Position numbers and translations under genes: made by a program. DNA of 64,000 nucleotides, taken from NCBI RefSeq assembly GCF_044647545.1, contig NZ_CP172818.1. One strand, written 5' to 3'. Below are positions 35,634 through 35,980 of this stretch, piece after piece. The notes beneath the pieces were generated by a model, which was not told where the DNA came from, made no database searches, and was given only the letters and a program-made list of their open reading frames with translations. Source of the stretch: Escherichia coli. GTDB taxonomy: Bacteria; Pseudomonadota; Gammaproteobacteria; Enterobacterales; Enterobacteriaceae. Each line of letters starts with the position of its first letter. Position 1 is the stretch's first letter.

Positions 35634-35980
35634 CCTGAAACGTGGCAAATTCTACTCGTTTTGGGTAAAAAATGCAAATACTGCTGGGATTTGGTGTACC
35701 GAGACGGGACGTAAAATCTGCAGGCATTATAGTGATCCATGCCACATTTTGTCAACGTTTATTGCTAATCACGTGAATGAATATCCAGTTCACTTTCATT
35801 TGTTGAATACTTTTGCCTTCTCCTGCTCTCCCTTAAGCGCATTATTTTACAAAAAACACACTAAACTCTTCCTGTCTCCGATAAAAGATGATTAAATGAA
35901 AACTCATTTATTTTGCATAAAAATTCAGTGAGAGCGGAAATCTAGGCTCATCATCAGTTAATTAAGCAGGGTGTTATTTT

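Follow-up and report, generated by a model that had tools for sequence, protein, structure and literature searches.

Divergent control of metY and argG in Escherichia coli: a tandem ArgR operator over the argG promoter and a candidate auxiliary ARG box upstream of metY P2

The operators of argA, argECBH, argD, argF, argI and carAB P2 consist of two 18-bp imperfect palindromes (ARG boxes) that stand 3 bp apart over the promoter, and the principal operator of argG is built in the same way. Unlike those tandem operators, the argG control region also holds a candidate third box, isolated about 100 bp upstream and facing a divergent operon of a tRNA and translation factors. A further comparison is offered by the divergent gene pairs that are served by one CRP site (PMC3105977), and the spacer of metY-argG likewise holds a single CRP-like site; here, however, it falls inside the metY P2 promoter (at about -19.5) and about 190 bp from the argG promoter. 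The argG/metY region of strain K-12 is the same locus as the one described here and shares its three ARG-box matches, its CRP-like site and its promoters.

Krin 2003 (J Bacteriol 185:3139) reportedly found that from one position CAP exerts opposite effects, activation of argG and inhibition of metY, and that the control of metY by CAP is in turn subject to ArgR and arginine. ArgR operators were reportedly studied by Charlier et al. 1992. In the published work cited here, metY and argG are served by a single CRP site (Shimada 2011, PMC3105977), cAMP-CAP and ArgR down-regulate metY (PMC3017606, citing Krin 2003) and a fragment of the operon is described as containing "all three ArgR binding sites" (PMC3334882). 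Cho 2015 (PMC4381063), again with reference to Krin 2003, mentions a site at a distance of about 90 bp from the ARG boxes, and PMC3334882 places a Fis site of the control region downstream of P2, beside the boundary of the P1 fragment. The sequences of the three boxes, searched as text in the full-text literature, returned no match. Binding of FabR at this spacer was reported by ChIP-chip in Salmonella and was judged a false positive by its own authors. The control region is real and already known, and an initial annotation of this DNA had located part of it; it carries little weight as a discovery, since argG-metY is a textbook locus of the arginine regulon and the coupling of CAP and ArgR was published in 2003.

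The window, by which we mean the whole 64-kb stretch of DNA that was analysed, is a piece of E. coli chromosome. Many complete E. coli chromosomes match the 601 bases around the site at 100% identity, and most of this 601-base stretch is carried by 5421 of 5426 genomes. The initiator tRNA gene metY is the first gene of the metY-rimP-nusA-infB operon, with rimP, nusA and infB downstream of it, and is transcribed away from argG (Table 1). Since the tRNA ends at 35633 and the argG reading frame starts at 35981, positions 35634-35980 are exactly the metY-argG spacer, 347 bp long with 37% G+C. The divergent arrangement had been given in the initial annotation with exact coordinates, as the ARAGORN prediction, the list of open reading frames and the K-12 annotation all confirm. 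The K-12 spacer differs from that of the window at three of the 347 positions (35740, 35772 and 35943).

Table 1. Coordinates of genes, promoters and candidate regulatory sites in and around the metY-argG spacer (positions are those of the window)
Feature	Position	Strand	Sequence or elements	Basis
metY, initiator tRNA-fMet	35557-35633	minus	tRNA-Met(CAT)	ARAGORN; K-12 label metY, tRNA-initiator Met
metY P1, proximal promoter	35649-35677	minus	-35 TTGCAT 35677-35672, 17-bp spacer, -10 TAGAAT 35654-35649	promoter scan
metY P2, upstream promoter	35726-35755	minus	TTGACA 35755-35750, 18-bp spacer, TATAAT 35731-35726	promoter scan
CRP/CAP-like site	35728-35749	none	TATAGTGATCCATGCCACATTT; core AGTGA-N6-CCACA 35731-35746, centre 35738.5	
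Distal isolated ARG box (box 3), candidate site	35772-35789	none	CGTGAATGAATATCCAGT	matrix rank 4
Conserved block, T/A tract	35843-35857		TATTTTACAAAAAAC	spacer alignment
Conserved block, part	35868-35876		CTTCCTGTC	spacer alignment
Conserved block, part	35883-35890		AAAAGATG	spacer alignment
Main argG operator, tandem ARG boxes	35891-35929	none	ATTAAATGAAAACTCATT - TAT - TTTGCATAAAAATTCAGT	consensus and matrix
argG promoter	35896-35901; 35919-35924	plus	ATGAAA (35896-35901), 17-bp spacer, AAAAAT (35919-35924)	hexamers from PMC3946193
argG ribosome-binding region and ATG start	35964-35983	plus	AAGCAGGG and ATG	list of open reading frames
argG, 447-aa open reading frame	35981-37324	plus		list of open reading frames; K-12 annotates the same gene

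ARG boxes were sought both by consensus and by matrix. The consensus WNTGAATWWWWATTCANW, scanned over the 64 kb with up to 3 mismatches, gave seven matches where 6.55 were expected, and three of the seven lie inside the 347-bp spacer (35772-35789, 35891-35908 and 35912-35929). A symmetrised ArgR matrix was made from 14 boxes of seven K-12 operators (argA, argECBH, argD, argF, argI, argR and carAB), argG being excluded; the tandem boxes located for its training agree with the classical operators. When one operator at a time was left out, the true boxes scored 3.9-21.4 bits, with a mean of 15.3. Among the approximately 64,000 positions of the window the matrix ranks the same spacer sites first (35912, 19.6 bits), second (35891, 13.5 bits) and fourth (35772, 12.2 bits), and three sites of at least 12.19 bits fall together in one 347-bp spacer in 0.02% of spacer shuffles.

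Two of these sites make up the main operator of argG. Box 1 (35891-35908) departs from the consensus at 3 positions and box 2 (35912-35929) at 1, and the 3-bp spacer TAT between them sets the pair in the canonical 21-bp register, on the same face of the helix. Their single scores fall within the range of the known boxes. Their tandem score is 33.0 bits; the next-best pair in the window has 17.3, and none of 2000 spacer shuffles exceeded 19.2. The -35 hexamer of argG is contained in box 1 and the -10 hexamer in box 2, with transcription predicted to start at about 35931. These hexamers come from Shimada 2014 (PMC3946193), where the argG promoter is given as ATGAAA-17-AAAAAT and that of metY as TTGACA-18-TATAAT; the consensus scan yielded no plus-strand promoter in the spacer at its threshold, for which the published argG hexamers are too weak. 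A separate argG promoter near the CRP site, overlapped by box 3, was also considered, and none was found by eye or by consensus scan. The initial annotation had placed ArgR control in the shared upstream region of metY-nusA-infB and argG and had attached it to a TGAAT-rich string. It was right about the regulator and the genes and misplaced the operator, which lies about 100 bp nearer argG: the string points to the secondary box, and the strongest boxes, 35891-35908 and 35912-35929, had been left unmentioned. The CRP site and the consensus upstream promoter of metY, which form the context of box 3, had been overlooked as well.

The string itself is found at 35773-35810, with TGAAT pentamers at 35774, 35778 and 35804. 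A TGAAT-rich cluster upstream of both genes is indeed present; when the spacer was shuffled 5000 times with its dinucleotides preserved, at least three copies within 35 bp arose in 0.3% of cases, although the total count of TGAAT/ATTCA in the spacer is ordinary (4 observed against 1.65 expected, P=0.08). The string had been said to contain ARG-box-like sequences in the plural, and the matrix recovers one credible box in it, the 18-mer at 35772-35789, with 3 mismatches to the consensus and a score of 12.2 bits that is inside the range of known boxes. Registers scored over 35745-35815 give a meaningful positive value only at 35772, and those across 35790-35815 reach at most 3.8 bits. The two positions at which a partner in the 21-bp register would lie score -19.0 bits (35793) and -9.6 bits (35751). 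Because a single register scores, plural boxes in the string are not confirmed, and because box 3 is without a 21-bp partner it is at most a single auxiliary box and not a canonical operator.

Judged by its sequence, this 18-mer is a credible candidate ARG box. Taken alone it stands weakly above chance in an AT-rich spacer, where 8.7% of spacer shuffles hold a site of at least 12.19 bits, the score of box 3 (marginal, P about 0.09); the K-12 allele, with T at 35772, reaches 17.0 bits and exceeds the mean of the true boxes. The outer primer of the fragment described in PMC3334882 maps to about 35924-35950, just beyond box 2, and because the three published sites lie between metY and that primer they fit boxes 3, 1 and 2. 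Since published work gives three ArgR sites, box 3 is the best remaining candidate for the third, and it is most likely the distal one of the three reported. Its centre is 119 bp from the centre of box 1 and 140 bp from that of box 2. The CRP-like site, measured between centres, is exactly four helical turns (42 bp) away, and box 3 is centred at about -61.5 from the predicted metY P2 start and -150.5 from the predicted argG start. In K-12 coordinates box 3 is at 3318428-3318445, boxes 1 and 2 are at 3318547-3318585 and the CRP-like site is at 3318384-3318405.

Other ARG-like 18-mers occur in the window. The fourth in the spacer, AGCGCATTATTTTACAAA at 35836-35853, scores 11.1 bits and ranks ninth in the window; Kluyvera has a 16.3-bit box that is offset by about 9 bp from the position aligned to it, and the other genera have none. 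At 15545-15562, on the stop codon of yraR and upstream of yraQ, TGGGAATAATTATTCAGC scores 13.1 bits (rank 3) and, with a weak partner, gives a tandem score of 17.3. Inside the coding sequence of argG, TGGGAACGATTATTCAAT at 37078-37095 scores 11.5 bits and is probably a chance match.

On the metY side of the spacer the promoter scan returns two minus-strand promoters, of which P2 matches the consensus hexamers at 12 of 12 positions and corresponds to the hexamers published for metY; transcription would start near 35719 from P2 and near 35642 from P1. The CRP-like site falls within the spacer and -10 of P2, with its core between the two hexamers. This core is the sole sequence in the spacer with at most 2 mismatches to TGTGA-N6-TCACA; such matches number 22 in the window against 28 expected and are thus not enriched, so that the consensus match was dropped as independent evidence. 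The assignment of 35728-35749 to CRP is made because the literature gives a single CRP site for metY-argG. The centre of the site is at about -19.5 from the predicted P2 start and -192.5 from the predicted argG start. Its position inside P2 implies repression of metY from this promoter, while activation of argG by CRP cannot be of the classical class I or class II type, since a distance of about 190 bp is too far.

The phylogenetic distribution of these elements separates the main operator from box 3. A search of genome contigs with ArgG gave at least 80 loci, an arbitrary subset from which Salmonella, E. albertii and E. fergusonii are absent. Among the loci listed, argG stands divergently next to metY in 14 species of Enterobacteriaceae from about 10 genera; in Pectobacteriaceae, Yersiniaceae and more distant groups the two were not found side by side. 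The tandem pair, with its 3-bp spacing, is detected by the matrix in all 14 of the Enterobacteriaceae species sampled. It also reaches 33-34 bits in Pectobacterium, Brenneria and Dickeya, in which argG lacks metY as its neighbour. Because it is kept in Pectobacteriaceae without metY synteny, the tandem operator belongs to argG and is old, and no other ArgR element in the sampled loci is shared between genera in this way. An alignment of the spacers of the 14 Enterobacteriaceae species further shows that the P1 block of metY and the sequence upstream of P1 are kept, that both hexamers of P2 are conserved across genera and that the same is true of the Shine-Dalgarno region, the AGCAGGG of the argG ribosome-binding region being kept in every species aligned.

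Between genera, no alignment could be made of the stretch 35756-35835, in which the quoted string and box 3 lie, and in the 14-species comparison the other genera show no such box at the position corresponding to box 3. Box 3 is taken to be a putative lineage-specific auxiliary site of the Escherichia lineage, weaker than the main operator. A good CRP match at the position of 35728-35749 occurs only in E. coli and Kluyvera, and a weak one in Shimwellia; since the core is recognisable in these lineages, control of metY by CRP may be lineage-specific too.

Two further features appeared in the comparison of spacers. The segment 35843-35890, upstream of the argG -35 hexamer, is conserved in the 14 Enterobacteriaceae species and runs into both tandem boxes; it could be an UP-like element or the site of an unrecognised regulator. 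An extra leader of 30-50 bp (...CATCATGGCGTGGCTGTTAAGTCTCTCACCAT...) between the ARG pair and the start of argG is carried by Phytobacter, Enterobacter sp. ENT03, Escherichia sp. ESNIH1 and Enterobacter sp. Bisph1; E. coli is without it.

Within E. coli, the differences between the window strain and K-12 include C in place of T at the first position of box 3 (35772), which gives 12.2 against 17.0 bits, a C-to-T difference at the centre of the CRP site, which the protein does not contact (T in the window), and a third change at 35943. An exact search with a 48-mer around box 3 found the C allele in 2268 complete genomes and the T (K-12) allele in 2280, or about 42% each, and other variants in about 850 genomes. 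The C/T difference at 35772 is a balanced polymorphism in E. coli. An O169:H41 strain has a further change in the box, T to G at 35782, which lowers its score to 7.4 bits. The tandem pair is invariant in the E. coli sample. In a chicken isolate (NZ_CP178675.1), an IS21-family element with istA and istB sits in the spacer at the equivalent of about 35763, between P2 and box 3, so that metY is cut off from argG and from each of the three ARG boxes.

The reading that we prefer, to which we give a probability of roughly 0.8, is that the spacer is a bidirectional control region of argG and metY-rimP-nusA-infB in which ArgR and CRP act in four steps. On the argG side, arginine-bound hexameric ArgR on 35891-35929, the ancestral operator, would repress argG by excluding RNA polymerase, since the tandem boxes cover the -35 and -10; sequence, position and conservation at this locus and the known mechanism of ArgR argue for this step. 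Box 3 would be a third, isolated and weaker auxiliary ArgR site just upstream of metY P2. At P2 itself, cAMP-CRP would occlude the promoter and so repress metY and, according to the literature, would activate argG from the same position, a step suggested by the position of the site and by published statements. Finally, box 3 might be occupied by a separate, weakly bound hexamer or, through a DNA loop, by the two subunits left free in the hexamer that is anchored at boxes 1 and 2. A simple loop is not favoured because distances of 119 and 140 bp are not whole helical turns. In either arrangement ArgR at box 3 would modulate the effect of CRP on P2 and thereby tie both divergent promoters to arginine. 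For box 3 and this last step we draw on the sequence match and the geometry, with binding and effect taken from the literature; the mechanism is what we infer from them.

The explanations that compete with this one concern box 3 and the string around it. Box 3 could be a chance look-alike in AT-rich, rapidly evolving DNA, with all ArgR control of argG exerted through the tandem pair. The frequency with which spacer shuffles reach its score (8.7%) would fit such an origin, as would its want of a tandem partner, the failure of 35756-35835 to align between genera, the existence of E. coli variants as low as 7.4 bits and the similar single scores elsewhere in the window (13.1 bits for the site at 15545, 11.5 bits for the one within argG). 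Against it, PMC3334882 speaks of three ArgR sites and PMC4381063 of an additional site at a distance of about 90 bp from the pair, the K-12 allele scores above the true-box mean (17.0 against 15.3 bits) and spacers with three such sites make up only 0.02% of shuffles, and we consider a chance origin unlikely. An ArgR operator of argG that takes up the whole of 35771-35810 and contains at least two boxes is extremely improbable: three clustered TGAAT pentamers (P=0.003) and one 18-mer that fits the consensus speak for it, but one register alone scores, with -19.0 and -9.6 bits at +21 and -21 and no more than 3.8 bits at the others, and some 150 bp separate the stretch from the argG hexamers downstream of it, the true tandem operator being at 35891-35929.

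The TGAAT-rich stretch might instead serve mainly as an upstream element of P2, either UP-like or a bent AT tract, or as a Fis-type site, its likeness to an ArgR site being secondary. It extends from about -45 to -90 relative to the predicted P2 start, directly upstream of a consensus promoter of a tRNA operon, it is AT-rich, as the spacer is, and PMC3334882 does place a Fis site in the control region. That Fis site, however, is located downstream of P2 by the P1 fragment boundary and not in the stretch, and the stretch is not conserved while P2 is, which leaves this explanation very unlikely.

Beyond this reading, the C/T allele might make the coupling of metY-nusA-infB to arginine and cAMP dependent on the strain, or the 35843-35890 block might be the site of a regulator or an architectural protein, which could mediate long-range activation of argG by CRP; together these two proposals are speculative and quite unlikely. 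The alleles of box 3 differ by about 5 bits. The comparative data split an ancient tandem operator, which belongs to argG, from a young, polymorphic and putative auxiliary box by the promoter of a translation-factor operon.
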